Below the pieces are notes generated by a model, which made no database searches, was not told where the DNA came from, and saw only the letters and a program-made list of their open reading frames with translations. Below, in pieces: positions 743-26,178 of a stretch of DNA of 64,000 nt. The position numbers and the translations under genes are program-made. Source of the DNA: Nemertoderma westbladi (Eukaryota > Animalia > Xenacoelomorpha); the NCBI GenBank assembly GCA_032718475.1, contig JAUCBJ010008204.1, positions 1 through 64,000 of the forward strand, read 5' to 3'. Every line of letters begins with the position of its first letter. The first letter of the stretch is position 1.

Positions 743-3192
743 CAAAGGTAATTCTAAATCAAATTGAAAGTTTAGTTATATGAATTCTATATATATTTAG
801 TTATCAAAAAACACAATAACAAGTAAACTGAGGCATCTCTCTAAAAAATAAACAGTTTTTATCGATTATCTCAGAACTACAAAAATCGACTTAGGGGGTT
901 CTGCCTTGAAGGTGACGATATACAAGTGACAAAAGTGCTTTTTCCCAAACACCCCTTCTGGCAGTTAGGCCGAACCGACATACCTTTTGGCTGTGGGATA
1001 GTGTTAGCCAATGAGGTGAGCTTATTAGAGGAACAGCCAATTAGAAGCCCAGCAATACTTCCATAGGCTGAAACGACACCCCAATTGGAAATATGCAGTG
1101 CTACGGGAACTACATATTAAATGTGCTAAACCTGGTCTTTTGGGATGAGTCTTCTGGGTTCAGTAGTCTACTCACTCCTCCCATTTAGAAGCCTGGCTGC
1201 GCTCGTATAACAGGTCGCAAAATTATATCCCCAAATAAATATCCCCGTACCGCTACTGATATAAATAATATATCTTATAAACCTGATCGTTTAGGACTGT
1301 GTTACTACTGTATATTCATAATGTAACTGTATAACTACTTGGTCTCCTTTACAAGCCTCACCGTGCACGTGTTCGTCATCTCAAGCATGTACAATATAAT
1401 TGTCCGCTAACATCAGGGGTGGATCCAGAGGGTAACGGAAAACGGTGAGAAAACGGTCACTACTGAATAACTGGATGCAAAATATCGATTTTTTAAATTT
1501 TGAACTTTTATCACCCATAAAACTCCAAATAATAACAAACACAAAACAACTAATAAGAAAATAAAAAACAAATATTACCAACCCCCCCCCCCCCCCCCCC
1601 CCCCCCAAACAGTCGTTATGATTAAAACGGAAAACGGAAATTTGACCACGTATAGTGTCTACATTCAGACATTTATTGCGCGTTAGGTCCCAAAGAGCGT
1701 TAGGTCCTATATTGCCATTTAAATTAGGAGCCGGTTAGTAAAGGAGCAGGTCACAAAGGCGTGTTGCGGCTTGCGGGAACCAAAACAATAAACGAAAGTT
1801 GACACATGTTAGTCATGTTACAAGATTATGTAGGTCTTTATAATTGGCTTTGTTTTGTACTCACTACTCACTCACGCAGTCACCCATGCAGCACTATCTG
1901 TTCTGGTTGCTGGTACTGCAGTACAGCAGTAGCTTAGCTTATCAGCTGATCAGGGTAGTAATCAGGGTTAGGCTTAGGCCTACAGTAGCCTAATACATCA
2001 ATACCGGTACATGTAATACAGTAATAGAGGCCTAATTTATTTTCATGAACGTGGACGGAGGCTGGGTGGACTAGCACTAGACCACAAGCCTGCAAGCTGC
2101 ATGGCGTTAGAATGTGAAGAGCAAGAGAATGTCAAATGGCATCGCATCACTCATCACATTCAGACATTGTGTATGTGCATGCAGTAGGCCTACTGCACAG
2201 TATTTATGTGCTACTTCCAAAGTCCAGGCTGCATAGTTTTCTCTACTCTAGGCCTACTGCTCTAGGAGCCTACTGGCTTTTGCTGTTTTATGGGCAGATG
2301 GGCTTTGGCATCGGTCAGTCGGTTGACCGGTCCACTGCACTGACTACAGGACTACGCTACCGGCTGGCCGCGGACCGGTACCGTTACCGGTACACGTCAT
2401 AGCTCTGTCCTCTGTAGCGGCTTGGATTCTGGCTTACTGCAGTCAGCAGTACTGGCTTACCTAACGCTAACCTAACAGTCTAAAACCTAACGTCTAAAAA
2501 CCAGATTGCCAGAAGTCAGGAAGTTGTGTGGGTAGATTTGCAAACTCCAGCCATCCAGCGGCATATCACAGCCTAAACAGCTCTAAAGGCCTGCAGACAA
2601 CAGGCTGACAGGCATACATCTGTACTTTGGTCTGTTGGTCTCACGGCCTACTCTCCACTCTCAGACTCTCTGACTCTGCCAGTGCCCAGGCCAGGCTGCC
2701 AGGCAGCCAGGACTGCAGGAAGCTCTGACTGTCTGAAGCTGGGGGAGGATGGAGGAGGTGAGGTGACAGAGTGACTGCAGACTGGTTCTGTGTCTGTCAG
2801 TCTGTGCGATCAGTCAGTCAGTCTGTCAGTGTACGGCTGTACGGTGTACTGGTACCGGTACCTGTGTACGGCACCGACACGTGGCCCGGTCTGACGGTCA
2901 ACGGTAGGCTGGTAGGTCAGTAGGTCCTGCCAGCCTGCCCTGCATGCCCTGCTGCCTGCCGCCAGATATCCAAATTCCAAACACAAGAATGTGGCGAATC
3001 TACAACCTACAGCTAACCAGCAGACCAGCCAACAGCGCCGCGCCAGTCAAAGTCAACACCAATTGCCTGGCGGTCCCTGGTCTGATCCTACCCCAGTACC
3101 CTACTGCCCTACCTAACAGCCTAACCCAGCAGCCCAGTCTGCCAGTACTGCAGTAACCTGCTGACCTGCTCAGCTCACCTGCTCACAGCCTT

Positions 3193-3734
3193 TGTGACGG
3201 GATCCAAGAGGGATCCCGGTTTATCCGGTTTTAGTTCACGCGTCCCCGCCGTGTATGAAGAGTGAATAAGTTCGTGCTGTTTGTCGTATATAATATGATA
3301 TGCAGGTATAGGTATAGATATAGATATAGATATATTGTCGTATACGGAAGGCGGATACGGTAACTAAAGTCCCGGTCCTTCCCTATCTAAAACTATGTAA
3401 CCTAATCTAGCACCGGTATTGCACTGAGATAACTGAATTGGTATTATTACTGCCAAGTGGCTATATTGCACGGTTGGCCTTGTTGCTCTACCTAATCGAT
3501 GCCTTTCCCCCCTCTGATTGGTTGATACCCTTGTTGGCGCCCTTTCGAGTGTTCCCGTTCACTCCACCTATTCTCTCTGGGTTAGGGGTTTGGCCCCTGA
3601 CCCTCATTGTGTGCTTCTCCTTCCCATTCTCATTGGGATGGCACGAGTTGGTTAATTACCCAATCTCGTGGCTCCCAATATTGCTTATCGGCTTATAACT
3701 TTATGGGGTGTTAGCGGGATTGAATAAGCTAACA
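3193..3734 (-). repeat. 3' LTR of outer element
   Basis: Matches 23315-23851 except about two substitutions, one 6-bp indel and one 1-bp indel (by eye). Confidence 0.97.
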
Positions 3735-3743
3735 CTCCCCCCC
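3735..3743 (-). promoter_or_regulatory. Polypurine tract of outer element (GGGGGGGAG)
   Basis: Directly abuts the 3' LTR on the minus strand; identical tract in the inner element at 16521-16529. Confidence 0.9.
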
Positions 3744-4453
3744 ATGCTATCTTCCCGGTAAGAAGATAGCATCAACCAAAAAGTGCGCTACAATCCCGCT
3801 GGATCCCGATCTAGTATCGGGTGTGGGGTGGAATTCTTTTCTCTCGGAGCCGGCTTTCCAGGCCGCCCCCTATGGGTATGATAACGCTACCCTGTGTGCC
3901 TGGCGTCTCATGTCGGGCCGATCGCGCTCACCTCTCACGCAACTTTTGTTTCCCCAACACTTCCGCCCTATCTCTTCTTCACTCTCATCCTAACTCTCTC
4001 ATACATTCGGACCTCCTCGTCCCTTACTCAGTCTCTTATTCTCCCCCCCCCCACACTAGAATTGCGTCCGCACTCTCTCTGTACTTCGCACTATTACTCT
4101 GTCCCTCAACCCTACTTCGACTGCCTCATCCCTTCAGACGAATCTCCCCCCCCCCCCCCCCCCCTCTTGTGCCGTCGCACTCAAGAAGTGTGAAATTGTC
4201 TGGTGTCTCGTCCATAGTGCCATAGTCAGTTATCCCCCAGTCCCAGTAGCTAATTGAGAAAGGTTGTATGACTATAGTACTTACTCCCATCGTATATTCG
4301 TAGATTACTAATTACTACGTACGTACATACAAATTGCACTTATATGATTATTTGCATTAATTAAATTTGTACTTAATAGTTCGTACGTCCCACGCGGCGC
4401 CTTCCAGGCGCACCACGTCCCAGTCTCAGTCTCTATCCCTCGACTCTGGGAAC

Positions 4454-7012
4454 CTATCTGTTCCTCTGGGGATAGTTCCCCCTGGCGTCCTCTTCCCTGG
4501 GCCGTTTCTTGGTTATCACCGTTCCTCTGGCATCATCCGCTTTCTGCTTTCGGACCTTCGCCGCCACCTCCCTGCTGATCCCGGTCGTTGGCTCCTTGGG
4601 CGCTGGTGTTATTAGTGCCCGATACCGCTTCGCCGGTGGCCCCTCAGAGTGGCCCGGTTGTCTCCCTCTGGTGGCGTCCCATAGGATCATTTTCATTGCC
4701 TTTGGTACGTGCTCCGCCAAGAAATCCCTAAACTCCCTTCGGTTCTCTGGCGTCCACCTGTCCAAATACCTTTGCGTGTTCATCACTCCAGCGTACGACG
4801 CCGCCGTTGCTACCTCTTGGTAGGTAAACGGTAGCCTCCGCTTTATGATTTCCATGTGAGTCTCCTGATTGATAAGGAAGAAACCCCACTTGAACTCCTG
4901 GGCCTTCATGCGCTGGCGCGTCATGGCCCCGACGTCGGCCCACTCCTCGAATCTTGTGAACTTCTCCTCGTCGTTCATCCAGTCGCACTCGCGTCCGTAG
5001 TGTCCCCGAAAGTGGCACTTTGGACATCGGTTATGCAACCGTGGACACGCCCCCATCCTGTGGCTTGGTTCTCTGCAATAGAGACAAAAGGTTCCCTTTT
5101 GGAACCGGTATAGGCAGCTGCTTTCCCGATGGGTCTGTCTCCCACAGTAGTCGCAGCCGAGTACCAATGTCTCCCGTCCCACCTCGTCTTTCGTCCCAAG
5201 CGATCTCCGCGGTCTGTGGAGTCGCTGGTAGGCGAACTTCTCTACGTTGGTCTCTCTATCTACGTCGATCTCTCCGCCCCTCTCGGGCATCGTCTCCCCG
5301 AATACTATCCGTGGTGCCGTCCCCGGTTGCTCGCCCAACCTGATGGTGCTCCCCGCGAAATCCATCGCCGGCTCCTCGTGCACCCAGGTCCGCTTGCCGG
5401 ATCTGTTCCAGAAGGCCCTCGCCCCACTGGCCGTCACCACCCTTCCGCCAACCCAGTCCGTGTCCGAGTGGCCTATCCTCTCGATGGGCGGCATCTCTCC
5501 GAACTCGTCGTCGTCGTCCTCCTCTTCTGGCAGTGTCTCCAACCCCGGTATCCCGATGGATCCACTATATCCCTTTCCGCCTTGGCTCTCCCCCGTAGCT
5601 CTCCATCCCTCTAGCTCCCTTAACTTCCTTGGCGGTTGGTCGCCCTCGGCGCCCGCTGGTATGGGCATCGTTTGCAGCCCCGACGTCGACTGTTTCGGCG
5701 ATCCCACCGTCCATCCCAATTCTCGCCCTAGAGACTCCCCCGAACTTCCTGATGAAGTCCAATGAAGTTCGTCTAGGCCTGCCTGTTCCTCGAAGCCGTA
5801 ACTCTGTGTCCTGGCCTCCTCTTCCCTCTCCTCTGCTTCTATCCTCTCCCGTCTAGCGACTTCTTCCAGTCGCTTTGCTTCTCGTCTATCCGTCTCTAGC
5901 TGCTCCCATCTCTGATACGGTGTATCTGTCTCCCTGTCTACCAGATGTCGGCTGTTGTAGTACACCGACTCGCCCTTCAGCCCCGGGTGGTCTACCAGAC
6001 CGTCAAAGGCCGTCTTAAAAGGCTCTCCTGTAGCTTAGGGGTGATCCCGATAACAGAAATGCCCCTGGTTCCCTCTCGATAACCACAGTCATGAATAAGT
6101 TGAGCAAACTTATCATCATCCAGTCCTCCAGCAAGATATATCGCTTCTGATATACCTTTATCGCTCCCCTGCGGAACTGATATACCTCCTGCTTTCCTGG
6201 TCTCGCTCCCCACTTTAGCGAGTTCGCTAGTTCTGCTCCGTATTCTTCCCTAAACTTCCCCCAATCCATCGGTTTGTGGCATACGAGCCCCAATAATTGG
6301 CCCATTGCCACCGCCCCGCATTGGCCTGTGTTTTCGACGCGTGTTTTACCCCCAACCCATCCGGTGCCGTCATAGCCATAAAGACTTTCTGCATATCCAG
6401 GAGGTTGGTGGCGTCCGGACCGATGATCCTCTCCGCGTCCTCGCGAATCGCCGATCCCACTTTCGTCGTCGACTTCTCTCTCACTAAGACCTGTACCGCT
6501 TTCGGTATCCGGTCTAGTTTCGGCCCGTCCTTCTTCCCATACGTCCCTAGGTCGAATAAGAAGATGTCCCCATTTGGCGCGGCCAAATGTAGGAGTATGG
6601 TCCTGGCCGACCCCAGAGTTCCTCGTCTCGAACCCGCCTCGTCTTCCACGGTTCCCTCATCATCTAGGATCATATATCCTCCTCTGTTGACGGACTCTAT
6701 GAATCTCTTCCAGTCCTTCCTCGGTGATTCCCTCGGGTACTTCGGAATCCTGAACTTCGCCTCATCCCCTTTCACCACGTAGTGGAAGTGTTGGAAGATC
6801 GCGTTGTCCAGCGACGGCGTCCCGTAGGTCCCGACCAGCCGCTGTTCGTGCATCTCCCTGAAGTGATCCTGCAGCGCTCGCGCCGCGTGACCCCTTTCCA
6901 ACCTCTCGTAGTATCCTCTCGTCTTCTCTTCCGGATGCCTCTCGGTGAAATCCACCAGTATCTCCTTTCCTCCTGACTCCGCCTTTCTCTTTCTGATCAA
7001 CTTACTCGCCAT
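4454..7012 (-). pseudogene. Accessory ORF of outer element: DEDDy-type 3'-5' exonuclease domain plus three CCHC zinc knuckles (~850 codons, two frameshifts near 6315 and 6030)
   Basis: ORF pieces 7012-6227, 6311-6015 and 5965-4454 join by frameshifts. Motifs ILDDEG (ExoI), LLHLAAPNGDIFLFDL, KVGSAIREDAERI (ExoII), NLLDM, AMGQLLG, W..RP...Q.RYILLED (ExoIII-like) resemble WRN/EXD/Mut-7. Knuckles are CDYCGRQTHRESSC, CLYCREPSHRMGAC and CPKCHFRGHYGREC. Confidence 0.8.
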
Positions 7013-7504
7013 TCCGAACGTTCACTCGCTCACCTGCAAGGTGGTGCCTTACCAAGGCGCAATACAGATGAGTGATGTATCTAAGATGTTCTGTACGGTT
7101 CGATAATGGCCTATTTCCTACTTAACTGCGCCTTTTAACCTAAATTATTCCTAATTAATTTTGAAGCTAGTAAATGAGCGTAATTTACAATTTCTGTCCG
7201 TTACTTTTATTATATTCTAGAATAACTTTCCTTGTGTTGCCATTATTTTACAACTTTCAGCCCTATTCTGTTTATTTATCTATTTAATTTGATTCTACTG
7301 TCCTACTACTTACTACTGCCTATGGATTATTCTATTCTCTAATCCACATTCTGGCCTACTCTGTGGGTCTATGCAGTACAGCAGCATGCGTCGTGTGGCC
7401 ACACGACTTACCCAGCTGTACTCATATGCCCCCCTCTCGCTACTAACGCTACTAACTGCTAACTAATATCTATATCTATATCCCCTTTTACCTCTTACTC
7501 TCTC

Positions 7505-8045
7505 TCTTCTAACTAACGGTACTACGTACCCTCTAACTCTAACTCTTCTAACTAACGGTACTTACGTACCCTCTAACTCTCTAACTAACTAGCGGTACTT
7601 ACGTACCCTCTAACTCTCTAACTAACTAGCGGTACTTACGTACCCTCTAACTCTCTAACTAACTATCGGTACTACGTACCCTCTAACTCTCTGACTAACG
7701 GTACTTACGTACCCTCTAACTAACTATCGGTACTACGTACCCTCTAACTCTAACTAACTAGCGGTACTACGTACCCTCTAACTCTCTGACTAACTAACGG
7801 TACTTACGTACCCTCTAACTAACTCTCTAACTGGCGGTACTACGTACCTCCTAACTAACTGACTAACTAACGGTACTTACGTACCCTCTAACTAACTCTC
7901 TAACTGGCGGTACTACGTACCTCCTAACTAACTAACTAACTAACGGTACTTACGTACCCTCTAACTAACTCTCTAACTGGCGGTACTACGTACCTCCTAA
8001 CTAACTAACTAACTAGGTACTACGTACCTTCTAACTAACTCTCTG
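7505..8045 (-). repeat. Tandem array of short GGTAC-loop-GTACC hairpins with GTTAG-rich spacers, downstream of pol
   Basis: Repeated ctaactaacggtac(t)tacgtaccctctaac units of ~30-40 bp. Confidence 0.9.
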
Positions 8046-8188
8046 CCTACTAACTGCGTACCTACCATGTACTATTTTTTTTATTTTATTTTATTTTTTC
8101 TATTTTGTTTGTGGGAAGGGCGTCTCGCCCTCAATCCCACCCCCCTCAGTCCAAAACTTGGACGACTAAACTCGACTCTAACTCCAAG

Positions 8189-10493
8189 TTAAGGTGCCCC
8201 TTCTAGCAGACAGCATTTGCCTACTGCTCTCCTGTAGGTTTTCCTGTCCTTCGCACCTATCTTTCCACCTATCCGCACTTCTACCGATCGGACTCTTCCG
8301 TCCTCGTCGGAGTAGGTGCCTACAACTCTCGCCAACCGCCATTGGTTGTTGATGATAGTATCATCCGTAACGATTACGAGATCTCCTACTCTTAACTCCC
8401 TGTTCGGCTTCCTCCACTTGCTTCGCTTATGGAGCGTGGGTAGGTATTCCTCGACCCACCTCCTCCAATACTCTGCGCTTATTGCCTTTGCGACTTTCCA
8501 ACTTTGGCGGGAGTGTATGTCATCTGGGTCTACACCCCGCATATCGATGGTCGCTGGCCTTTCCATCAGGAAATGGCTAGGCGTCAGCACGTCTAGTGAC
8601 TCAGGGTCATCATTCTCCGGATATAGCGGTCTGCTATTAATGATCCCCTCGCACTTCGCAAGTACTGTCCGTAAGACGTCCTCAGTGACCATGTGGGTGT
8701 TCATTAGCTTCGTCATTAGACGCTTTGAACTGCCCACCAGTCTCTCGACGCATCCTAGTGTATGTGGTGCATACGGCGTCCTTCTCTCCCACTTTACTTG
8801 TCGTTGTCTCATGGCTGCCCTGACTTCTTCTCCCTCCAAGGCCTCTGCCATCTCACTCTCTGCGCCCACAAAGTTGGTGCCGTTGTCGCTGTATATCACT
8901 GCGATCGTCCCACCTTTGCGGTCCCTAAACCTTTCTAAGGCGTTAATGAACGCTGATGCGGTTGCATCTTGGGCGAGTTCTATCCCTACCGCCCGCGTAT
9001 TGTTGCATACGAAGATAATGCCGTAGCGTTTCTCCGTGTGTCGCATCACTTTGATCTTGATCGGCCCGAACATGTCCACACCGCAATGCGTAAATGGCGG
9101 GTCGTGCTGTCTTACCCTACTCGCCGGTAGTGGCGCCATCTCCTGTACGGCTCGCTCCTTCTTCGCTCGTTGGCAGGTCTGGCACTGCCCCACTACCGCT
9201 TTTACCTTCTTCCTCAGTTGTTTGACCCAATAGGTCCTCCTTATCTCTGTGAGGGTTCGGTTGGTGCCCCCATGTAATATCGATTTGTGGGAGTCCCATA
9301 TAATCTGGTGGACTATTGGCGATCCTGTTGGAATGATGATGGGTTTCGGTGGTACGACTATGCTGTTGTTGTATCCCACCCTAGAATTCATTACTAGAAT
9401 CCCGTTGTCATTGAGTTGTGGCGACAGCGTAATCAGCTCGCTGTCCCGTCGTAGGTGCTGTTGGTTACCGACGCATTCCACCTCGTCGCCGTAGTTCTTC
9501 CGTTGTTCATAGCGGATCACTGCCTTGGCCGCTCCTTCCAGATCTATGGTTGTCCTGATCTTCTTGTCCTTGCCAACTCCCGCAAGGAAATTCCCGAAGG
9601 CTCTCCAGTACGCCACTAGTTTCTTGGTCTTATACCAACTAGAACTGTAGCTGAGGAGTTTATCCGTCGGGTTATCGCACAGTTCCCGTCCTGGTTGCAC
9701 GTCCCTAATCTCCCTCACCATCTGGGAGTATATCTCTTCTCCCTCTGAATCTCCCTCTTCTCCTTCTGATACTACTTCCGAGCCCGGGTCCACCTTCCTC
9801 ATCGGCGGCCAGGCCTCCTTATCGCTCAGAAATTGTGGCCCATGTTGCCACAATACTTCCTTCTTCAAGAAAGTGTGGCGTACCACGCCCCTTGACAACA
9901 AGTCCGCTGGGTTATCGTCTGTTGGGCAGTAGTGCCACCTTTCCAATTCTGTACTCGCCCTTATTTCGTCCACTCTATTCGCGACGAATATCGGGTATCT
10001 CGTCCTTTCGTTGTGTAGCCAACCAAGCACTACCATGGAGTCCGTCCAGTAGTGTGTCTCCACTATGTTGGGAATAGTATCCACTAGGTAGGCTGTGGCT
10101 CTTACTCCTAGTCTCGCGGCTGTCAATTCTAACTTAGGAACTGATGCTGAATCTGGTGGCGTTGACTTTGCTTTACTAAAGGCTAGTCTTGGCTTATGAG
10201 CCCCCTCTCGTTGTACTAAGTAGAGTGCCGCTCCGTACGCTTCCAACGATGCGTCGGAGAACATGTGTAGGTCCAGATTCGTCATGTTCCCATCCGGGAA
10301 ATACACCCGTGGCATGTTGTATGTTCCCATCTTCTCCAAGTCTCCTGTCCACTTGCTCCACTGCTTCTTGATTTCCTCTGGTACCTCTACGTCCCACTCA
10401 TCTTTCAATTTGTATACTCTCTTGAGTATCTGTTTCCCCGTGACTAATAATGGGGATGCTAGGCCTAGGGGATCGTATATCCTTGCTATATAC
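8189..10493 (-). CDS. Outer pol, 3' part: RT thumb/RNase H, integrase (HHCC + DDE) and C-terminal domain
   Basis: YDPLG, FSDASLEAYGA, VPKLEL, WTDS, NPADLLSRG; H..ILH...C..C; GVDMFGP, SDNGTNFVGA, ERLVG; WVEEYLPTLHKRSKW. Removing the insert plus one TATAC restores the in-frame reading KRGYVSYIARIYDPLG. Confidence 0.95.
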
Positions 10494-11023
10494 TGTTAGC
10501 TTATCCAATTCCGCTAACACAAACCCATAGAGTGAGCCATAAAGCAATATTGGGAGCCTATTGTCAGCCCAGTAAACGGGGACAATAGGCCCCAAAGGAG
10601 ACACACACAATAAGGGTCAGGGGTTACTCCCCTGACAAGAGAGAGAACAGCAAGGGCGAAGGGAAGCACTTCAGAGGGGGGCAAAGGGTGCCAACAGGGG
10701 TATCAACCAATCAGAGGGGGGAAAGGCATCGATTGAGTAGCAATAAGGCCACCGTGCAATATAACCAGTTACCAGTAATCATACCGGTCAGTTATTCAGT
10801 TTACTCAGTCAGATCAGTAGGGTGGAACGGGGACTTCTGTCACCGTCCGCTACCGCCATCATATTATTCATACTTATATTACCTGTTGTGTTATACTATA
10901 TATCAGACTATTATACCTTATACATATAACCGGACACCAGAACTATTTTACCTTTCACACACGGCGGGGACGCGTGGATAGAAAACCCAAACGGATAAAC
11001 CGGGATCCGTAGATCCCGTCACA
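10494..11023 (+). repeat. 5' LTR of inner element
   Basis: tgttagc...cgtcaca; only one substitution seen versus 16530-17059. Confidence 0.97.
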
Positions 11024-11032
11024 GTGACAGAA
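11024..11032 (+). promoter_or_regulatory. Putative self-complementary primer-binding site of inner element (GTGACAGAA)
   Basis: No TGG/tRNA complement; exact reverse complement of TTCTGTCAC at 10835-10843 in its own LTR. Confidence 0.7.
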
Positions 11033-11111
11033 CTAGATCCGCCCAGCTGCCCTGACAGAGATAGAATAGAGCTACCGTCCTAGCTAGCGACGACCAGCTA
11101 CCAAAGGCGAG

Positions 11112-14100
11112 ATGAGCCGAGAGAAAGGAACGACACCGCCGCGGACCCCGGACGACGATCTAACGATCCGCGAGGCCACGGCGAGACGATACGAACCCAC
11201 GACGCCGGTCGATGCTACGCCGACCACGTCGACGCACGTTGACGCCACGTCGATAACGAGCAACACGGCGAACCAAGGTGTGGGGGGTCGTCTACCAGGA
11301 GAGAGCGAGTCGAGTAGAGGAGACGAGTCGGGAGGAGAAGAAAAAGACGAGTCGACGCGGAGCGAGGGTCGACATACCGATGTCACCGGTCCGCCACAGG
11401 CCGAGGACGACAAACGGTCCACCGGAACGGCGACGGTGGGGCCGTCGGTACGACGTCGGACCCGGAGAGACAGAGGAGAGGTCGGCGACGAGGACGTCGG
11501 GGTTTCTGATCGACTTCGACGGGCCTACAACGCGACCCGGGAACTACTAAAGGAGGCCAAGGAGGGGGCGAGGATAGACGAGGTCAGGATGACAAAGGGA
11601 CTAGGTGAGTCGGACAGATACTTTGATCACCTAGTGTGTTCTGGGCAGAGAGAACTAGCAGAGTTGAGGGCGTGGGGAGTTGCCTTCGAACTGTTTAAAC
11701 TATGGGAATGTGGGGGTATGGAACCTAGTGTAGTGTACATAGGGCCATACTTAGTCGATGCCAGGGAAGTTAAGTTAGTGGGTTGGGCGGGACCGCACGA
11801 GGGCGAATCCGAGGTTAGCTCCGAGGATTCGGTCTCGTCGGTCAGCGAGAACCCCGGAAAGCGGGGGAAAGTTAGTAGGACGGAGGGGCGACGGGAGTCC
11901 GTCGCAACCGGTAAGTCTGCTACATCCTCCGCAAAAGAAAGAAGGGTGCGGGAGATAAATCTGGCGTATGGAATAGAAGTGGCGGCGGCAGAGCAGAAAG
12001 AGTTAGAGAGGCGACTGAGTGAGGAAACCGCGTGGTTGGAGAGAGAAAGAGAGTGGGCAAAGGAAGATAGAGAGAGAGTCGAGGAGTGTAGAGAGCGGGA
12101 GATGGGAGTAGAGAGCGAGTCGGCAAAGCGGTCTGAGGTGCTTGCGAGAGAGAGGGCCGAGCGAAGTTTACGAAAGTGCATAAAGAGAGAGATAGAGATA
12201 GAGCGTGAGCGGGATGATTTGTGTGCCCAGATAGGGAGGCTTGCGCAATATCAAGCCAAACTTAAACGGCGCCGACTAGAACTGGCGCGGTTGGAGATAT
12301 CAGAGAGTGAGCCCCCACTTACAGGCACCGGGCGAGAAAACCAGAACTGGTGTAGCCATACGGGCGGGGGGGGTAGTAGTAGTACGTTAGAAGCAGTTAA
12401 TATTAATAGTACCGTAGTAAATAACCCTAATCCCTTTATTACAGGAAATAATATTTTACCGGGTAGTAGTAATTTAAATTTAAATACAAATACTCTAAAT
12501 AATAACTTCAATTCAAACCCGCAAAATAATTCGAATAATAATTTAAGTTTAGAGAATAGTAGCCACCTAAGTAATTTAAATAATTTAAATAATAATTCCG
12601 TTTCGAATTCTAATAATTTAATTGATTTAACAAATAATAATGGGAATGGTGCTATTAATATGAGCGTGTCGGACGTACATAACCCGGCAGACGGTGGCCT
12701 GGTAGGCCACGTAGTTAGTAAGCAGGAGGTGGCAGGGTTGAGCCAACCAGACGGCGGCCTGGTAGGCCACGTAGTTAGTAGGCAGGAAGTGGCGCGGTTG
12801 AGCCAACCCGAGGTGGGCCTGGTAGGCCACGCAGTAGTAGAGAGAGAGGCGGGGGTGAATAGACCCAGCCGTAGTGGAGACAGTGCGTCGACTAGAGAGG
12901 GGTGTAGAGACGAAGTAAGAGATAGTGAAGTTAGATGTGGCGAGTGGGGGGGGGGCTACGGGCGCCCCACCACGTAAGACTAGTGGCGAGAGAGGGGGGG
13001 CAGAGAATGCCCCACAAGAGGGGTGTAGAAGTGTAGTAAGAGGTAGTGAAGTTAGAAGTGGCGGGTGGGGGGGGGGCTATGGACACCCCACCGCGAGAAG
13101 TTAGTAGAGAGAGAGGGGGGGCAGAGAGTGTCCCACAGCCGTCAGCGGATAATGCGAGGGCCGAAATAGGTAAACCGCAACAACCGGCGACGGAGAGTAA
13201 TAGGGGGATTGCGAGTATCCCCAGCGGCGTGCGATCGAGCAGAGAGAGGCAGGTTGACGTCGCGAGAGGGCAGGCGAAGCGTCGAGCCCGACCAGAAGAG
13301 AGAAGAAGAACAGTGGAGTTTAACCGGGAGGTCGACGAGAGATCTCATGAGCCGGAATACTGCACTGAAAAGAGAAGAAGAGGAGATAGTAGAAAAGGTG
13401 TCGCCACGAACGATAGCAGTGCGAGGACGGATAACGGACCGTCGATAGTAGAGATGGAGTCAGGGAGCCAGTGGGGTCGAACTTCGGGAGATTGCCGTCG
13501 CCCCGGAGAAACGCACCGCACGCCAGGAGGGGGGTACAGGACGTACCAGTACGAAGAAGAGAACAGGAGAGGGGATCGAGGGGAAACTTCCCGACGGGAT
13601 ATAGCTGCCGATCGAGAGTACGGTAGTCGCGGGGAGATTCGAGATTCGCGAAGAATAAACTTCGGTTCGGAAGGGCACATGCAGACTGCAGGACATACTG
13701 TAGGCCTTACTGCACATACTATTATAGGCCATGCTGGGAGAGATAGAGTAGGCGATGGGGTAGCGCGAACGACGGGATTAAACCCGGAAGTCGCGGAGTA
13801 CATACCGGTAGGTAGGCGAGAGGTAGGTAGGCCTATATCGGTACAGCAGCATGACTATAATACACAGGGACATAACATATATCCAGGGGAGGGGGGAGTT
13901 ATTGGAGATAGACGTATGGGCCCCAATGTATTAACATCAACCCCAGCACCAAACATACCGGCTGGGGGGGGGACAGGGTGACATTCCCCCATCACAATAT
14001 CGACAATATACCCCGATAGGAGCAAGAATATCGAACTCCCTGGACGAGAGCAGGTCGTGCGGACAGTCACCACCACACGCGGCCATACAGGGGACTACCA

Positions 14101-14834
14101 GTCCACAGTTAGCTGGTAGTAGGGCCACACCGTGGCAGGGACAGAAAGAAAATAACACTATATATAATAAACACAATCCCAATATACCCAGTAGGCCGAG
14201 TCTAGACAACCAAAACATTAAATCGGTACATATAAACCTAAGCGCGATACGTGAAGGACTATACAGGAAACGCTATAATCCAGGATTCCAATGTCAATTA
14301 CATCGGGACGGAACCCATAAGACCAGGAGTTGCAAGTACTGGCAAGCGTTGCCCAAACGAGATCGTGTAGCCTACACAGACGCAAACGGACTATGTCATC
14401 GATGTGTGGTAAAAGGACACAGATCCGGAGAGTGTTGGAAAGGGAGAGGATATGAAAGGATTAAACAAGGGGCAGAGAAGCCTATTAGCAAACATAAGGG
14501 AGTCGGGAAAGTAGGAGGAGGCGTGTTGCATACACACGCAGGACGGACACAGTGCGAGGGGGCATTGCACGGACAGACACCGCGTATACCGAGGGACGAG
14601 CGGGGGTCGTCGAGGGCCTTAATGCCAGCGCACATACGAAGGGGGAGGCCAGCAAAGGTAGCACCGAAGAGAGTGTGGCGAAGAGTTAGAGGACGTATAG
14701 GAGGGCAGCAGGAGAGTGCCCACTGGAAGAAGGGGCACGTGAGAGTTTTTAGTCGTCCAAAGTTTTGGACTGAGGGGGGTGGGAATGAGGGCGAGACGCC
14801 CTTCCCACGCACAAAATATAAAATAATTATTTAA
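11112..14834 (+). CDS. Capsid-less Gag-like protein (acidic N-terminus, coiled coil, Asn-rich linker, 20-aa repeats, two Cys/His knuckles); frame breaks only at G-runs
   Basis: Homologous to outer 23245-18800. Frame shifts at G-runs near 12950, 13070 and 13970; then open to 14834 through CQLHRDGTHKTRSC and CHRCVVKGHRSGEC. Confidence 0.75.
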
Positions 14835-14869
14835 TTAAAAATAAGAAAATAATTAAATAATAGAGTAGG

Positions 14870-16110
14870 TAGAAGTTAGGTAGTAAGAGTTAATTAGTTA
14901 GTTAGTTAGTTAAAGGAGGGTACGTGTAGTACCGTTAGTAGAAGAGTTAGTAGAACGGTACGTGTAGTACCGTTAGTAGAAGAGTTAGTAGGAGGGTACG
15001 TGTAGTACCGTTAGTAGAAGAGTTAGTAGGAGGGTACGTGTAGTACCGTTAGTAGAAGAGTTAGTAGGAGGGTACGTGTAGTACCGTTAGTAGAAGAGAG
15101 TTAGAGGGTACGTAAGTACCGCTAGTTAGTTAGAGTTAGAGGGTACGTAAGTACCGATTAGAAAGTAAGAGTTAGAGGGTACGTGGTACCGTTAGTTAGA
15201 GGTGTTAGTAGTAGCAGCAGAGGGTTGTGGGCACCGTAAGCGCCACGTAGTTAGAGTTAGTAGGGAATGCGCTGAACTTAGTGGGGCACGGGCGTGATGA
15301 CGTGTTTGATGTAAGAGCAGGGTATGTTAATTAGGGTGGGTGCCGGGCACAAGAGGTGCCGGGCACAAAAAGAGTTAGTAGTAGAGTTAGTTGAGTTAGT
15401 AGAGAGTTAGTAGAGTTAGTAGAGTTAGAAGGTGCCGGGCACAAGAGGTGCCGGGCACAAAAAGAGTTAGTAGAGTTAGAAGGTGCCGGGCACAAGAGGT
15501 GCCGGGCACAAAAGGGGTTAGTAGAGTTAGAAGAGAGTTAGTAGAGTCAGTAGTAGTTCACATAATTAACGTACCCACTCTGCCGGCACTCAGAGCGTCA
15601 CGTGTAGGCGATGAGACGTAAAGGGGGAGTAGAGGAGTAGAGAGGGCACATTGGGTGCCAGGTAGTAGAAGAGTAGAGACGGGCACATAGGGTGCCAGGT
15701 AGTAAGTTAGAGAGGTAGTAGTGTAGTAGAGAGGGCACATAGGGTGCCAGGTAGTAGAGTAGAGCAGAGGGGGCACATAGGGTGCCAGGTAGTAGAGCTA
15801 GAGAGGTAGTTGAGTAGTAGAAGGGCACATAGGGTGCCAGATAGTAGAGTGGTTGTGGGCACCGTAAGCGCCACGTAGTTAGAAGAGTGGAGTAGAGTTA
15901 GCAGAGCTAGTGGAGTAGAGTTAGTAGAGCTAGTTAGCAGAGTTGGTAGACTCAGAGGAGTCAAGTAGAGTTAGTAGAAGTAGAAAGTTAGTAGGAGTTA
16001 GTTAGACTTAGTAGAGAGTTAGAGTCAGTAGAAAGTTAGAGGCTCTCAGTTAGAGCTAGAAGTAGTAAGAGTTAGTAGTTAGCAGAGTTAGTTAGATAGT
16101 TAGAGTTAGT
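14870..16110 (+). repeat. C-poor GTTAG/GTAG-rich region with tandem hairpin units
   Basis: Repeats of ggtacgtgtagtacc, ggtacgtaagtacc, gtgccgggcac and ggcacatagggtgcc separated by agagttagtag spacers. Confidence 0.85.
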
Positions 16111-16529
16111 AAGCAGTAGGTAGATAGTATGATAGCACAGGGGTAGCATTAGAGATTAAAGCCTTAGGGAGTGACAAGAGAGGGATGGGGTAACTAGTGC
16201 GGAGTGCGAAGAGAGCGTGGGCGCAATTCAAGTGTGGGGGAGGAGAAGTGAGAGGAAGAGTGTGGGACGAGGAGGTCCGGGAGTATGCGAGAGTTGGAGT
16301 AGAGTGGTGAGAGTGTTGGGGAAACAAAAATTGTGTGAGAGAAGCGCACGATCGGCCCGACACGAGACGCCAGAGGGTAGTGACATCATACCCATAGGGA
16401 GCGGCCTGGAAAGCCGACTCCGAAAAAATAGACCCACCCCACACCCGATAATAGATCGGGATCCAGCGGAATTGTAGCGCACTTGAGTTGGATGCTATCT
16501 TCTCACCGGGAAGATAGCATGGGGGGGAG

Positions 16530-17059
16530 TGTTAGCTTATCCAATTCCGCTAACACAAACCCATAGAGTGAGCCATAAAGCAATATTGGGAGCCTATTGT
16601 CAGCCCAGTAAACGGGGACAATAGGCCCCAAAGGAGACACACACAATAAGGGTCAGGGGTTACTCCCCTGACAAGAGAGAGAACAGCAAGGGCGAAGGGA
16701 AGCACTTCAGAGGGGGGCAAAGGGTGCCAACAGGGGTATCAACCAATCAGAGGGGGGAAAGGCATCGATTGAGTAGCAATAAGGCCACCGTGCAATATAA
16801 CCAGTTACCAGTAATCATACCGGTCAGTTATTCAGTTTACTCAGTCAGATCAGTAGGGTGGAACGGGGACTTCTGTCACCGTCCGCTACCGCCATCATAT
16901 TATTCATACTTATATTACCTGTTGTGTTATACTATATATCAGACTATTATACATTATACATATAACCGGACACCAGAACTATTTTACCTTTCACACACGG
17001 CGGGGACGCGTGGATAGAAAACCCAAACGGATAAACCGGGATCCGTAGATCCCGTCACA
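16530..17059 (+). repeat. 3' LTR of inner element
   Basis: Preceded by PPT gggggggag; near-identical to 10494-11023. Confidence 0.97.
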
Positions 17060-20000
17060 TATACGATACATAACCCCTCTTCGTGTGGATGTCTGCGCCC
17101 TCCTGGCTCAGCTGATACTTCAGTTCGTCTGTCTCTCTATCCCACACGATTCCCAATGCCTTCTGCTGGGATTCCGTTCTCTTAATCGCCATGTCCTGCC
17201 CTTTGGCTGTTGTGGGATTATCCATGGTCGATTCTGGTTTCCTGTCCTCTATGGCTTTGATAAATTCTTCCGAACTGGATTGGAATTTGGTCAGGTTGAA
17301 GCCGGATCCTTTTAGGATATCGCGAACCTCGCGCCCTGTATCCAGTATCTCCTTAACCGTATTTCCAGACTCCATTCCGTCGTCTACGTAGAAGCCGCGT
17401 CGAATCATATCGACGGCCCTACTGCTGTATCTATCTTCCTTCCCCTTTACTGTGTCTCTCACTGCCATAGTCGTCGTAAATGAAGACGACTTGGCCCCCA
17501 TGTTCTGTACTACCATCTTATATGCCGGTATTATCGACGGTTCTTCCTCGCCGTTATACCATAAGAAGCGCTGACTGTCGCTATCTTCCTCCATTACACG
17601 GACTTGGTTGAACATGCCTTCTATGTCACACGTGAAGGCGTGTTTCCCATTTCTAAATCTAAGTAACACCTCTATGCCCGAATTGTATATGTTTGGGCCT
17701 TCTAACAGGTAGTCGTTTAAGCACTTTCCGTCGGTCTTTGCCGATGCGTCGACTACCATCCTTAGTTTACCTTTCTTTGGGTCTAAAGCCACGTGCAGTG
17801 GCAGGTAATATGTCCTATCCGTGTTCGGCTCGTCGACCAGTAACTCCACGGCCCATCCTTTCTCGACGTACTTCTTAATTGTTCTGTGGATGTACTCATT
17901 CTTCTCGGGGCTCCGTTTTAGTGTTTGTTTCAGTTTGCGGAGTCTCGTGAGTACCATCCCCCTATTGTCGGGCAGCGGTATCTTCGGTAGTTTCCATACC
18001 ATTCCTATAGTATACCGTCCCTCATCGCATGTCATTGATTCCTCCACGCTTTGTAGAGCCTGCTTGTCTTCTACTGAGGTCCCGACTCCGGTTTCTTTCA
18101 GTCCCTCGAAATCCTGTCTGAGCAGTCTTTTAAGCTGCTCCTCTGCTCCCTCGTCACCCATTTCCTGCATTGTTCCCGCGAACATGCATCCTGATGTCTC
18201 CGACATCCTAAATGGTATCTTGCTCTTAATTGGACCACTCAGCGTCCACCCGAATGGTGTTAATATGGCCACCGGGTCACTCTGCTTGTCTTCGCCGAAG
18301 ACCGTTTGCATTCTTTCGTGGGCCGTTGGGCAGTCCATACCTACTATGATGGATACCTTGCTAACGTCCACGTCTGGGATTGAGAAGTCAATGTCGTCCA
18401 GGAATTTATATTGCTCGACCTCGATGTTGGTTGGTCGCCTGGCATTGATATTAATTGACTCTATCACTTGGATGGGGTCGATGGTTGCCCCATAGTCGCA
18501 TCCTGGTGCCACTGCTGCAATTGCGCACCGTCCTGTTCTCATCTCCAGGATCTCATCTTTGCTAGAGATGGTTGTTACCGCCATCCTGCTTGGCCTCGTT
18601 CTCAATCCTATCTCCTCGGCAACCCATTCCTCGACTAATGTGAAGGCAGCTCCACTATCAACCAGCATTAGCGTTGTTACTGATCGATTGCCTTCCCCAA
18701 TCACTCGCACGGGTACTACTCCAAGTAGCACCGTTCCTCTCTTCTTCGCTCCTACTGTGCTCGTCGCCATCGTTTGGCCTCTCCTTTGACCAAATTTTAT
18801 CGGCCTCTCCTTGCACTCCCTTGCTCTATGTCCACTCATTACACATCGCGAGCAGATTTTATTGCTGAACGCATAATCTATCTGATCCTGCCTAGGTAGC
18901 GCCTGCCAGTACCTGCAGTTCATGGTTTGATGAAGCGCATTTGCGTGTAGCTGGCATTTGCTCTTTGGGTCGTAGCCCTCTTTATACAGTGCATTGCGTA
19001 TCGCAGTTGCGTTTGTACCAAAGTCCCTACTATTCTTATTGTTTGGATTTAGCCTACTGGGCGTACTGGGGTTATGTTTATTCGTGTTGTTATTGTTTCC
19101 CTGTCCGTTCCATGGTGTTGTCTTATCCTCGGCTAGCTGTGGACTTGCAGTCCCCTGCGTCGCTGCATATGGCAATGATTGCCTGAGTCTCGGTAATGCG
19201 TTTGATGTGTTGTGCTCTGGTTTCGGTCTATGGTAGTCTGTCTTCGGTCCCTTTCCCAGGCTGTCTTCGCTATAGACTGGGTCAGTTATTAGCTCAGCCT
19301 CGTAGTTTAAGAAGTTTGACATTTCTTCTAAACCCGGTTCCGCACCCTTCTTATCTCGAGTGGAGAAGGCGATTTTCCTCCACTTGTTGCGCAGCCAGCT
19401 CGGTAGTGCCTGCGCTATCGTGGTGATGTTGTTGGACGCGTTGAGCTCGTATGGCGCGTCTAGCGTCTTCAGCACGATTAGCGCCTTTTCAACTTTGTTA
19501 GCAAATGTCTTAATGCTAACGGGATTATCCTGTAGGCCACCCGATGTTATGCCTCTCAACGTCTGTCTGATGATCTTGGCCGGGTGCCCGTATTCCCTAT
19601 CCAGTGCCCGCCATGCTGTCGTGAAGCCGCCCTCTATTCCTTGATATTGCCTCACGATGTCGTATGCTGGGCCTCCCGTGTACACTTGTAGATACTTTAG
19701 GCACTCCGCCTGCGTCAAGTTTTTTGTTAGTATTTCGTTACTATACATGCGCCGAAACTGTAGATATTCTTCCGGCCTACTCCCATCGAATTTGAATGGT
19801 TCCACGGGTGGTAGCTCGATCCTCGTTTTCAACGCATCGATCAACGTGGCCATCCCCATCGCCTGTGCTTCCAATGGATTCGATGGGTGCTGTATAGTTT
19901 CTCCTGTCTGGTGCGTTCCGTCTGTCCTATTTCTTGACTTTCTCTGACTTGGGTATGTCATCGGGGGTAGCGGCCCCCTCCATATTTCTGTGTCACACGA

Positions 20001-23000
20001 CCTATTCTCATCCAAGGGTCTCGTTGTTCTTGCTCCTATCGGGGTATATTGTTGATATTGTGATGGGGGAATGTCACCCTGTCCCCCCCCCCCCCACCGG
20101 TATGTTTGGTACTGGGGTTGATGTTAATATGTTGGGGCCCATGCACCTATCCGCAATAATTCCCCCCTCCCCTGGGTATATGTTATGTCCCTGCATGCTG
20201 TAGTCATACTGCTGTGCTGGTACCGGTATAGGCCTATCAGCTTCTGGCCTACCCGCCGGTATGTATTCCGCGACTTCCGGGTTTAATCCCGTTGTCCACG
20301 CTATCCTATCGCCTACATTGCCTCTCTCAGTATGGCCTACGGTATGTGCAGTAAGGCCTACAGTATGTCCTACAGTCTGCATGTGTTGTTCGGGATCGAA
20401 GTTTATTCTTCTCGAATAATCCTCCCCGCGGCTACCGTATTCTCGATCGATAGGTGTATTCCGTCGGAAAGTTTCTCTTCGACCCCCCTCTCTACTGTTC
20501 TCGTCTTCGTACCGGTACATCGCGTACCCCTCTCTCGGCGCGTAGTGCGCCTCGCCGGGTCGCATCTCTCCGGGGCGACGGCAATCTCCCGGAGTCCGAC
20601 CCCACTGACTCTCTGTTCTCATCTCGACTACCGACGGCTCGCTATCCGTCCTCGCTCTTCTATCGTTCGCGGCGATACTTCTACTACTGTCTTCTCTTCT
20701 TCTCCTTTCAGTGGAGTATTCCCGCTCGTGAGATCTCTCGTCGACCTCCCGGTTAAACCCCACTGTTCTTCTTCCCTCTTCTGATCGGGCTCGACGCTTC
20801 GTCCGCCCTCTCACGACGTCAACCTGTCTCTCTCTACTCGGTCGCACGCCGCTGGGGATACTCGCAATCCCCCTATTACTTTCCGTCGCCGGTTGTTGCG
20901 GTTTACCTATTTTGGCCCTCGCATTATCCGCTGACGGCTGTGGGGCACTCTCTGCCCCCCCCTTTTCGCCGCTAACTCGCTGTTGTGGGGTCCCTGTAGC
21001 CCCCCCCCCCCCCCCCCCACTCGCCACATCTAACTTCGCTATCCCTCACTACCGCTACTATATCCCTCTCTAGTCGACACATCAACCCTATCGCGGTCGG
21101 GTCTATTCACCCCCGCCTCTCTCTCTGCTATTGCGTGGCCTACCAGGCCCTCTGCTCCCTGCCTACCGACTATGCGGCCTACCAGGCCCTCGCTGGGTCC
21201 ATCCAACCCAGCCACTCCCTGCCTACCAACTACGTGGCCTACCAGGCCCTCGCTGGGTCCATCCAACCCAGCCACTCCCTGCCTACCAACTACGTGGCCT
21301 ACCAGGCCCTCGCCGGGTCTACCTAACCCAGCCACTCCCTGCCTACCAACTACGTGGCCTACCTGGGCCCCATCTGTCTGGCCATACACGCCCGACGTGT
21401 TTACATTAATAGCACCCGTATTGGGAACGGAATTAACTTGTTCGTTCGAAATAAAATCATTTGAATTATCTTGTAAATTCGGGCTTGGCTCATTAATTAA
21501 ATTATTTGAATTATTATTATTTTGGTTATTTGGATTATTTTGCGTAGCTACATTAATATTAGGATTATTTTCTACATTAATATTAGGATTGTTCTGATTT
21601 AAATTTAAATTACTACCACTAGGCAAAGTATTTCCTGCAATAAAGGTTTGATTAGAATTATCCCATACGGTACTATTAATATTAACCACGTCTACTGTAC
21701 CATTATCATTATTACCCCCCCCCCCCCCCCGCCCGTACGGTCACACCAGTTTTGGGTCTGTCGTGCGGTCCCTGTAAGTGGGGTATTAATAAATGTATCC
21801 ACGGCCCCTGGCTCCTCTAAAATACTCGAGCCTGTCTCGCTCTCAGACGCCCCCGCCCGCACCAGTTGCAGCTCGTGCGCGCGTCTAACCCTATGTTCCC
21901 CAAGCTCACTTTGGCGTCTCTTTAATTCCTCCTGGTCTCGCTCGGCTCCTGTCATTCTCCTCTCACACTCCCGCGTGTCCCGCTCAGCCAACTCTACTAC
22001 TTTCCTAGCACTCTCCCTTCGCCTCGCTTCACGCTCCTTACGTTCACTTTCCTTTCTCGCCTCATACTCCTTGCGTTCCGCCTCACGCTCTTTGCGTTCC
22101 CTTTCTTCCCTTGCCTCACGTTCCCTACACTCCTTTTCCTCCTTTTCCTCACACTCCCTAAGGCCCCTCAAAGCCCTTTCGGCCCTCTCTCCGGTTTCTC
22201 TAATCAATGCCGCTTCCCTCTCTAGCCGCATTCTCCCCTCCTCTAGCCGTTTATCCATTTCCCTCTGACCTTGCTCTATCAGCTCGAGACGGTACGCGGC
22301 ACCTGCCTCTCTCACCCGTCTTTCTTTCGCGGAGGATGTAGCAGACTTATCGGTTACGACGGACTCCCTCCGCCTTCCCGATCTACTAGCTTTCCCCCTC
22401 CTCCCGGAACTCCCTCCGACCGACGAGGCCGAATCCTCGGGGTTAACCTCGGATTCGCCCCCTTCAGGTCTGTTCCAACCCATTAATTTTATACCCCGGG
22501 CATCGATTAAATATGGCCCTATGTACACTACACTAGGTTGTATACCCCCATGCCGCCATGAGTCATACAGTTCCTCGGCAACCTTTCTCGCTCTCTCCTC
22601 GGCCAATTCTCTCTGCCCGAAACGCATTAGATAGTATAAATGTCTGTCCGACTTACCTAGTCCTGACTTCAGTTTTACCTCGTCTATCGTTTTCCCCTTT
22701 CTGGCCTCCTCTAGTAGTCTCCGGGTCGCGTTGTAGGCCCGTCGAAGTCGCTCAGAAACCCCGACGTCCTCGTCGCCGACCCCTCGTCCGTCTCTCCGGG
22801 TTCGACGTCGTACCGGCGGCCCCACCGTCGCCGTTTCGGCGGGCCGTCCGTCGCCCTCGGCCTGTGGCTGGCCGGCGACATCGGTATCGACACCTCCGTC
22901 GTCTCTCCGGGTCCTTCCTCGTACCGTCGGCCCTTCCGTCGTCGTCTCGGTGGGCCGTTCGTCGCTCTCGGCCTGTGGCTGGCCGGCGACGCCGGTGCGT

Positions 23001-23245
23001 CGACCCTCGTCCCGTGTCGACTCGTCTCCTTCTCCCTCGAGCCCGCTCTCTCTATCTTCCGACTCGACTCCCCCTCCTCTCGACTCGGCTTCTGACTCCA
23101 GACGGTCTCCCTCGCCTTGAACTTCCGGGTCGCCCGTTATCGATGGCTCCGGCGTCGTGGGCCTATACCGCCTGGTCGCGGCCTCGCGGATCGTTTGTTC
23201 TTCGTCCGGGGTCCGCGTCGGTGTTATTTCTCCCGACTGACTCAT
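17060..23245 (-). CDS. Outer gag-pol, 5' part: long N-terminal extension, capsid (DUF1759-like), Zn knuckles, aspartic protease and RT; frameshifted in the N-terminal extension
   Basis: PPVEPFKFDG...YLQ...AW..LDREYG capsid; CSRCVMSGHRAREC; LVDSGA; YYLPLH, LRMVVDAS, DIEGMFNQV, FYVDD, ALGIVW. ORF pieces 23245-21692, 21689-21039, 21027-20074 and 20015-17055 break mainly at poly-G runs. Confidence 0.93.
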
Positions 23246-23305
23246 CTTTCTTTATCTCTAAATTGGTCGCTGATGGTTACAGAGTTTATCTAGGGCGGCA
23301 GCTGA

Positions 23306-23314
23306 TTTAGTTAC
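23306..23314 (-). promoter_or_regulatory. Putative self-complementary primer-binding site of outer element (GTAACTAAA on the minus strand)
   Basis: Exact reverse complement of the LTR 9-mer at 23477-23485 (TTTAGTTAC on the minus strand). Confidence 0.7.
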
Positions 23315-23851
23315 TGTGACGGGATCCAAGAGGGATCCCGGTTTATCCGGTTTTAGTTCACGCGTCCCCGCCGTGTATAAAGAGTGAATAAGTTCGTGCT
23401 GTTTGTCGTATATAATATGATATGCAGGTATAGATATAGATATAGATATATTGTCGTATACGGAAGGCGGGATACGGTAACTAAAGTCCCGGTCCTTCCC
23501 TATCTAAAACTATGTAACCTAATCTAGCACCGGTATTGCACTGAGATAACTGAATTGGTATTATTACTGCCAAGTGGCTATATTGCACGGTTGGCCTTGT
23601 TGCTCTACCTAATCGATGCCTTTCCCCCCTCTGATTGGTTGATACCCTTGTTGGCGCCCTTTGGAGTGTTCCCGTTCACTCCACCTATTCTCTCTGGGTT
23701 AGGGGTTTGGCCCCTGACCCTCATTGTGTGCTTCTCCTTCCCATTCTCATTGGGATGGCACGAGTTGGTTAATTACCCAATCTCGTGGCTCCCAATATTG
23801 CTTATCGGCTTATAACTTTATGGGGTGTTAGCGGGATTGAATAAGCTAACA
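23315..23851 (-). repeat. 5' LTR of outer element
   Basis: Direct repeat of 3193-3734, followed by TSD GCCTT. Confidence 0.97.
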
Positions 23852-26046: not shown

Positions 26047-26178
26047 CTCATGTGAAGAATACCAGGATTTCACTTTTCGGTCGACTTTTTATTGGAATTT
26101 TATATATGCCCCAAGATTTTTTATTTTTTTAAATCTATCTTTATTAAGTGTTTTATAGCGCTTATTTCTGTCTTATAA
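26047..26178 (+). mobile_element. Truncated MITE copy (same family as 57410-57689)
   Basis: catgtgaagaataccaggatttcacttttcggtcgacttttt...ttttatagcgctta matches 57434-57542; that family ends in ggtattcttcacatg. Confidence 0.7.

Follow-up and report, generated by a model that had tools for sequence, protein, structure and literature searches.

A Bel/Pao retrotransposon in the genome of the xenacoelomorph Nemertoderma westbladi carries, in addition to gag and pol, an open reading frame (ORF) in the position where some retroelements place env. The element lies on contig JAUCBJ010008204.1 (assembly GCA_032718475.1), of which positions 1 to 64,000 of the forward strand constitute the window analyzed here; the additional ORF, henceforth ORF3, is read from the minus strand, as are gag and pol, and sits between integrase and polypurine tract. 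An initial annotation of the window had placed it in this slot and read it as a DEDDy-type 3′–5′ exonuclease followed by three CCHC zinc knuckles. What does ORF3 encode, is it a regular component of the element or a chance passenger, and what might it do?

ORF3 comprises ∼850 codons (4454..7012; ATG at 7012, stop at 4454–4456). A tandem-repeat spacer precedes it, its start lying 1176 nt past the pol stop, and 719 nt separate its end from the 3′ long terminal repeat (LTR). In the window copy it is distributed over three frame pieces, separated by the two frameshifts previously noted, one near 6340 and the other near 6017. The N-terminal 80 residues (6773..7012) have a basic start and no known match. 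They are followed by the N-terminal two thirds of the putative exonuclease (6350..6772), with the ExoI D-x-E at 6670–6653 and the ExoII D at 6463–6437; the further motif stretches quoted in the annotation, of the ExoI-like group, are found at 6595–6581 and 6565–6548. The C-terminal third (6018..6338) holds an atypical ExoIII motif, Y-x3-E, at 6149–6123. Beyond it lies a segment rich in E, R and K (5774..5893; 53% E/R/K), followed by a linker of low complexity that includes an acidic run near 5527–5504. The acidic stretch thus stands as described, and the coiled coil, judged by composition only, is better called a likely charged helix or coiled coil. Three C-x2-C-x4-H-x4-C knuckles were located at 5155–5114, 5086–5045 and 5026–4985, as claimed; neighbors of this region in the ESM Atlas are multi-knuckle proteins, with scores below 0.9. 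The remaining C-terminal region (4454..4984) matches no known family; its tail is basic and contains two K-[KR]-x-[KR] motifs.

An envelope identity for ORF3 was rejected, in agreement with the annotation. The basic N-terminus lacks a hydrophobic core of the signal-peptide type and there is no C-terminal membrane anchor, the hydropathy maximum of the C-terminal piece being 0.36. Within the middle piece, hydropathy rises to 1.68 in a single window of 19 residues, a borderline value for a membrane helix, and this window aligns with the ExoIII helix.

The exonuclease-like region

The N-terminal part of ORF3 was compared with a profile of 77 bacterial WRN-type exonucleases (120 loci gave 78 translated sequences, one of which was dropped for a low score). 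The profile is bacterial only; a query with a Mollyvirus DnaQ-like protein yielded no eukaryotic comparators. Searched against the PDB, the profile recovers WRN, trypanosome RNase D (TbRND), Nibbler/Mut-7, EXD2 and Rrp6, the alignment used for this retrieval including the first piece of ORF3 as one of its 63 rows.

Aligned to the profile with hhalign, the first piece of ORF3 spans 111 columns and scores 32.5, higher than any of 150 shuffles (best 23.8). HMMER gives the same piece 9.4 bits, the top score among 91 long frames of the window (next 3.0). Joining the first two pieces by an X results in 8.7 bits, one of 3000 shuffles of this joined sequence scoring above the 9.4 bits of the first piece, and in an hhalign alignment that covers profile positions 9–181 of 186 at a score of 32.9, barely above that of the first piece. 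In pairwise comparison the best score against a WRN-type comparator was beaten by none of 2000 shuffles (best of 77, uncorrected); with E. coli RNase D as comparator 261 of 2000 shuffles did better, and with the Mollyvirus protein 1179 of 2000. Finally, the top three clusters returned by an ESM Atlas feature search carry PF01612 (10–22% of members; score 0.92), and 28 of the 30 hits share the PF01612 family set. Scores of at least 0.9 were also obtained by 4–10 of 100 shuffled proteins, and we treat the Atlas result, including the mostly rotiferan membership of its top cluster, as a lead.

A plain multiple alignment shows D37, E39, K104, G106 and D112 to be invariant in all 63 rows. The ExoI D-x-E and the ExoII D are in collinear register with the WRN, EXD2 and Nibbler/Mut-7 exonucleases, a subgroup of PF01612, and the shared register includes K-V-G-x5-D; ORF3 differs from this group in its ExoIII motif, in an identity of only ∼20% and in falling below the Pfam threshold. 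Because three differently based tests give the same family in collinear register, the likeness appears to be more than chance. This agrees with the motif order originally proposed, and ORF3 very probably carries a DnaQ fold; failure to find any DnaQ-fold match, which the annotation had named as fatal to its proposal, was not the outcome.

Structure prediction adds compatibility with an EXD2-type fold, and no more. Supplied with an alignment of WRN-type proteins, AlphaFold returned a model of the region (pLDDT, the predicted local distance difference test, 72.3) for which EXD2 is the top structural match (Z 8.8, root-mean-square deviation 3.5, 112 residues aligned). Rrp6, EXD1, WRN and others come next, with Egalitarian and TbRND also among the matches.

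Several results speak against an exonuclease. The second piece, which holds ExoIII, is not significant alone, 73 of 150 shuffles reaching its score. In its best register Tyr and Trp are in place, and the YILLED string previously singled out as an atypical ExoIII is indeed located there; however, as part of this non-significant alignment it reads Y-x3-E, with E where the comparators have D (77 of 77), and not the canonical Y-x3-D. Pfam reported neither PF01612 nor any other hit for either exonuclease piece, the domain being split by the frame break. Prediction from the single sequence failed (pLDDT 33.6), and the aided model is largely circular: the WRN-type proteins of its alignment were chosen beforehand.

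Database searches were likewise unproductive. Searches of protein collections with the first piece (against longer proteins) and with the knuckle and C-terminal region found no relative of ORF3; two phmmer hits among all representatives were set aside, one being a short-repeat protein and the other matching in 14 short stretches. With the first piece as query, phmmer against the PDB gave chance hits only and tblastn against phages and plasmids nothing useful. Together with the missing Pfam hit, the failed unaided fold and the Atlas scores of shuffled proteins, this is what might be seen if the DEDDy likeness were superficial, or if ORF3 were a passenger fragment of host origin. We nonetheless hold such an explanation to be very improbable: it has to contend with the agreement of the three tests on family and register and, as described below, with a synonymous excess equal to that of pol and with the presence of ORF3 in diverged relatives.

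Another alternative accepts the fold and doubts the catalysis. ORF3 would then be a weak or dead pseudo-nuclease, in the manner of EXD1, Egalitarian and Maelstrom, binding RNA and engaging the machinery of silencing or RNA transport as an adaptor or a decoy. The E at the ExoIII D position fits this, as do the very high divergence without database relatives and the appearance of EXD1 and Egalitarian among the matches of the aided model; dead DEDD derivatives moreover function in the biogenesis of PIWI-interacting RNAs (piRNAs) (PMC5408684). Yet all four positions are still acidic, the Tyr is retained, ExoI and ExoII are canonical, and rotifer ORF3s with a D-to-E variant motif have been interpreted as possibly active (PMC5408684). 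We consider a pseudo-nuclease unlikely and predict, with moderate confidence, that the ORF3 protein is an active nuclease.

Presence and selection across the family

Contigs from public sequencing runs of organism A were placed on the window; contig depth does not equal copy number and was rejected as a measure of it. Runs X1 and X3 contribute 2450 and 1542 contigs to positions 5990–7130 (1141 bases), covering all 30 bins. Coverage extends to all bins of ORF3 and pol along the element, with no single contig bridging the two. Few contigs bridge either ORF3 break: that near 6340 is absent from 2268 of 2284 units of depth in X1 (3 contigs) and from 5914 of 6192 in X3 (5 contigs), and that near 6017 is absent from 60% of the depth in X1 and 75% in X3, counting the main row, and from more if neighboring rows are included. 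Single contigs of runs X5 and X6 are also without the break near 6017, and relatives in X5 with ∼87–90% identity still carry ORF3. The earlier statement that the copy is dead therefore needs to be divided: it applies to the copy in the window, in which ORF3 is broken twice and pol is split by a nested element, but not to the family.

Run X6, labelled organism B, contains low-depth contigs that are mostly 90–99% alike to pieces of the LTR, ORF3 and pol (3150–10500). Contamination, diet or a close relative could be their source.

Substitutions were counted in the best supported 40 rows of each comparison, with 106 and 1171 further rows beyond these, and all counts that follow refer to the differences so listed; the sites are not independent, many of them coming from a few diverged X5 contigs. 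In ORF3, 33 of 45 differences are synonymous, against an expected fraction of 0.30 when transitions receive eightfold weight (p = 3e-9), and no stops occur; the figure for pol is 16 of 21. Calculated by hand, the ratio of nonsynonymous to synonymous divergence (dN/dS) is ∼0.16 for ORF3 and ∼0.13 for pol. The synonymous excess is confined to the proposed frames (12 of 16, versus 4 and 1), and this includes the 6018..6338 piece, where 17 of 22 differences are synonymous and the other two frames give 4 and 5 of 22. For the C-terminal piece with the knuckles the count is 4 of 7 (p = 0.12), not a significant excess.

Judged by these comparisons, ORF3 is under purifying selection, with a synonymous excess equal to that of pol. 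Absence of the ORF from other family copies was the second outcome that the annotation had named as fatal; instead, contigs of X1, X3 and X5 carry it. A one-off transduction is rejected on the grounds of family-wide presence and selection, and ORF3 is almost certainly true cargo of the family.

Putative roles of ORF3

As a kind, exonuclease ORF3s are known already (PMC5408684). The LTR retrotransposons Juno and Vesta and the Penelope-like Athena/Terminon elements, all of bdelloid rotifers, like the element described here, carry a stand-alone DEDDy gene in the ORF3/env position, and the rotifer genes share the D-to-E motif variant (PMC5408684). The report bears out what the annotation had said of DEDDy genes on rotifer elements: the genes sit on Gypsy-like and Penelope-like elements, two groups that differ in replication chemistry. 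In contrast to the rotifer ORFs, ORF3 belongs to the Bel/Pao superfamily and to a high-copy family, is ∼850 codons long, and has a charged linker and three CCHC knuckles; the rotifer ORFs lack coiled-coil and membrane domains, and their report contains no mention of CCHC (PMC5408684). What appears new from the sequence is the Bel/Pao host element and the three-knuckle layout. Our search of open-access text (Repbase and subscription journals lay outside its scope) found no exonuclease ORF in Bel/Pao, nor any mobile element in which an exonuclease is joined to an array of knuckles. With ORF3, exonuclease cargo in the env position would be represented in a third group of retroelements besides the Gypsy-like and Penelope-like elements of rotifers, and such repeated independent capture suggests a common pressure on retroelements.

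The nearest parallel to the layout is a well-studied cellular trimmer of small RNAs. In TbRND (PDB 7c42, 7c45) a DEDD exonuclease is followed by an array of CCHC fingers that supply RNA binding; with the fingers deleted a guide-RNA mimic is hardly cleaved, and overexpression of the enzyme depletes a whole class of small RNAs, the guide RNAs (PMC7797062). ORF3 resembles it in architecture alone: TbRND, a mitochondrial enzyme of the cell, has four fingers behind a linker of 28 residues, whereas the three knuckles of ORF3 stand ∼300 residues away from the exonuclease, in a mobile element. The likeness is probably convergent.

That DEDDy genes have been captured by elements that replicate differently favors a host-facing role over a single step of replication. 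By analogy we tentatively propose small-RNA counter-defence as the main role of ORF3, a reading that we favor over each of the alternatives but rate as possible rather than probable. As with other ORF3s, a separate subgenomic RNA would be translated into the protein. Its knuckles would bind single-stranded RNA and, as in the trypanosome enzyme, pass 3′ ends to the exonuclease site, which would work despite the E at the ExoIII position. By trimming or destroying the guides or precursors of host small RNAs the protein would ease the silencing of the element. It would act in trans, hence non-coding relatives such as the nested element could lose ORF3. In its boldest form the proposal describes an active D-E-D-E exoribonuclease, guided by its knuckles and assembled by a self-priming Bel/Pao lineage separately from the trypanosome and rotifer cases, that destroys precursors of piRNAs or small interfering RNAs in trans and thereby explains the high copy number; in this full form it is doubtful. 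If true, it would mean a transposon-encoded enzyme directly attacking the small-RNA defence. Whether transposons carry anti-small-RNA enzymes is a question raised since the rotifer report of 2017, and a high-copy family in which selection on ORF3 is as strong as on pol offers a good test bed for it.

A number of points weigh against counter-defence. The selection signal in ORF3 is purifying, not diversifying as an arms race predicts. Because the linker has ∼300 residues, as opposed to the 28 of TbRND, exonuclease and knuckles may work apart. Mature animal piRNAs are 2′-O-methylated and resistant to such enzymes. In rotifers, the presence of a DEDDy ORF3 is without clear link to copy number (PMC5408684).

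The substrate could also be DNA. ORF3 would on this account be a WRN- or Dada-like exonuclease that cleans the ends of complementary DNA (cDNA), proofreads, or removes aborted cDNA. WRN and EXD2 belong to the closest comparator type, the basic motifs at both ends of ORF3 could be nuclear signals, and the authors of Dada have proposed 3′-end processing in transposition (PMC3706591). Dada (DEDDy) and KolobokD (DEDDh) share with ORF3 a transposon-borne exonuclease of DnaQ fold; they are, however, DNA transposons, and the Dada domain sits within the transposase (PMC3706591, PMC9587614). CCHC fingers in TbRND serve RNA binding (PMC7797062), and the ORF3 gene is separate from pol, without fusion to reverse transcriptase (RT) or integrase. 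We think a DNA-directed enzyme decidedly unlikely. Tandem CCHC knuckles mostly bind single-stranded RNA, a further count against it.

Returning to counter-defence and its first step, the expression of ORF3, a splice-site-like string lies 21 nt 5′ of the ATG (7028..7040, minus strand). The annotation had proposed a splice acceptor ∼20 nt before the ATG. The string is present, but the candidate acceptor ending at 7034 fits a donor equally well (CAG/GTGAG) and its pyrimidine tract is weak. Other copies show single-base length differences at 7019–7022, which argues that the stretch between string and ATG is a non-coding leader. ORF3s of LTR elements are typically expressed from spliced messages (PMC5408684). 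Run X6, for which an RNA origin is a guess, shows neither joint nor loose end at 7033 among the matches listed, and is no evidence either way.

The host element and its surroundings

The outer element extends from 23851 down to 3193 on the minus strand. Its LTRs (5′, 23315–23851; 3′, 3193–3734) have TG...CA ends; across 536 aligned bases they show 2 substitutions, and the alignment has 2 gaps. A 5-bp target-site duplication flanks them (left 3188–3192, right 23852–23856), and a polypurine tract, identical to that of the nested relative, lies at 3735..3745 (minus). Pfam places gag (DUF1759), protease and part of RT at 17060..23251, and the 3′ part of pol, with the Pao RNase H region (PF05380), integrase (PF17921) and DUF5641, at 8189..10493, both on the minus strand. 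The order gag DUF1759 – aspartyl protease – RT – PF05380 – integrase zinc finger/core – DUF5641 is that of Bel/Pao, with RVT_1 (E 0.0043) and PF00665 below the Pfam cut-off. LTR features and domain order thus agree with the Bel/Pao assignment first made, and by its sequence the element is a young member of a multi-copy Bel/Pao family. Bel/Pao elements have been described as confined to metazoans (PMC3601003); a comparison of the pol with viral contigs found no relatives.

The primer-binding-site position (23306–23314, minus strand) lacks the TGG start of a tRNA-type site. Instead, the 9 nt after the 5′ LTR are complementary to 23477–23485, which lies within the LTR at 162 nt from its end. The nested relative has the equivalent pairing in the homologous position, between 11024–11032 and 10835–10843, and differs by three changes, each matched on the other side; such pairing arose in 37 and 9 of 20000 sequences under a Markov null, and the two elements cross-pair over 5–6 bases at most. 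Pairing between a primer site and the LTR of the same element, preserved by matched changes, is the signature of Tf1-type self-priming. It is known from Tf1/sushi, Tcn1 and TAR (PMC4600332, PMC6317226); those are Ty3/gypsy or Ty1/copia elements, whereas the element here belongs to Bel/Pao and pairs over 9 bases. No self-priming Bel/Pao was found in the open-access text. The primer-paired fold resembles the arrangement in Tf1 but does not have the lowest energy: it lies 1.9–2.4 kcal/mol above a competing fold (3.2–3.8 if the RNA begins 6 nt earlier), with a pair probability of 0.01–0.18. In both elements the LTR primer stretch has an alternative partner, a site lying further along the LTR with which it can pair, an arrangement suggestive of a two-state fold.

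These features bring in a further explanation of ORF3, namely that it is a replication accessory acting on the element's own RNA, its knuckles chaperoning the 5′ fold and its exonuclease trimming the self-primer or RNA 3′ ends. The self-complementary primer site is one point in its favor; a chaperone would help a primer-paired fold that lies above its competitor in energy; and gag has one canonical knuckle and one that is degenerate. On the other side, the Tf1 primer is cleaved by the RNase H of RT (PMC4600332), and the predicted primer end lies at a helix junction, with no overhang for trimming. Of the self-primer to which the annotation had alluded, the sequence signature is present, but nothing ties ORF3 to it. 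A replication accessory seems to us rather unlikely.

The nested relative (10494..17059, plus strand) is a non-autonomous element with its own LTRs and 5-bp duplication, inserted inside the outer pol. With 1 substitution in 530 between its LTRs, it is very young. By tblastn it contains gag-like sequence and no pol or ORF3; it has kept the repeats, the polypurine tract and the LTRs. Among what it has kept is the purine-rich tandem-repeat spacer, found in the outer element between pol and ORF3 at 7490..8054 and in the nested relative at 14890–16150, with units of 37–73 nt; it is possibly a packaging or splicing signal.

In both elements the upstream frame of the gag region ends at ACA GGG TGA C (20074–20085, minus; 13970–13981, plus). 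Reading continues after this site in the +1 frame, and the preceding run of G differs by whole codons; a programmed +1 frameshift at the stop codon is a possibility. Long G-runs mark the sites of other breaks in the gag region, which may be errors of assembly.

Outside the element, Pfam identified ribosomal protein L7, SAC3/GANP, ubiquitin E1 and Med28, each in a single frame, within 24293–58560. By eye, the same interval also holds L23a-like and Y-box-like ORFs and a two-piece S-adenosylmethionine-synthetase-like ORF. These host genes appear nearly intron-free. The L7 protein scores higher with the top-ranked PDB chains, apparently of vertebrate ribosomes, than with plant and fungal chains, as fits an animal host. 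A 27-bp tandem array of ∼80 copies (26100–28000) is open in three frames, one of them encoding a Thr/Ser-rich 9-residue repeat, and at 551–746 there is an inverted repeat with 56-nt arms, resembling a miniature inverted-repeat transposable element (MITE).

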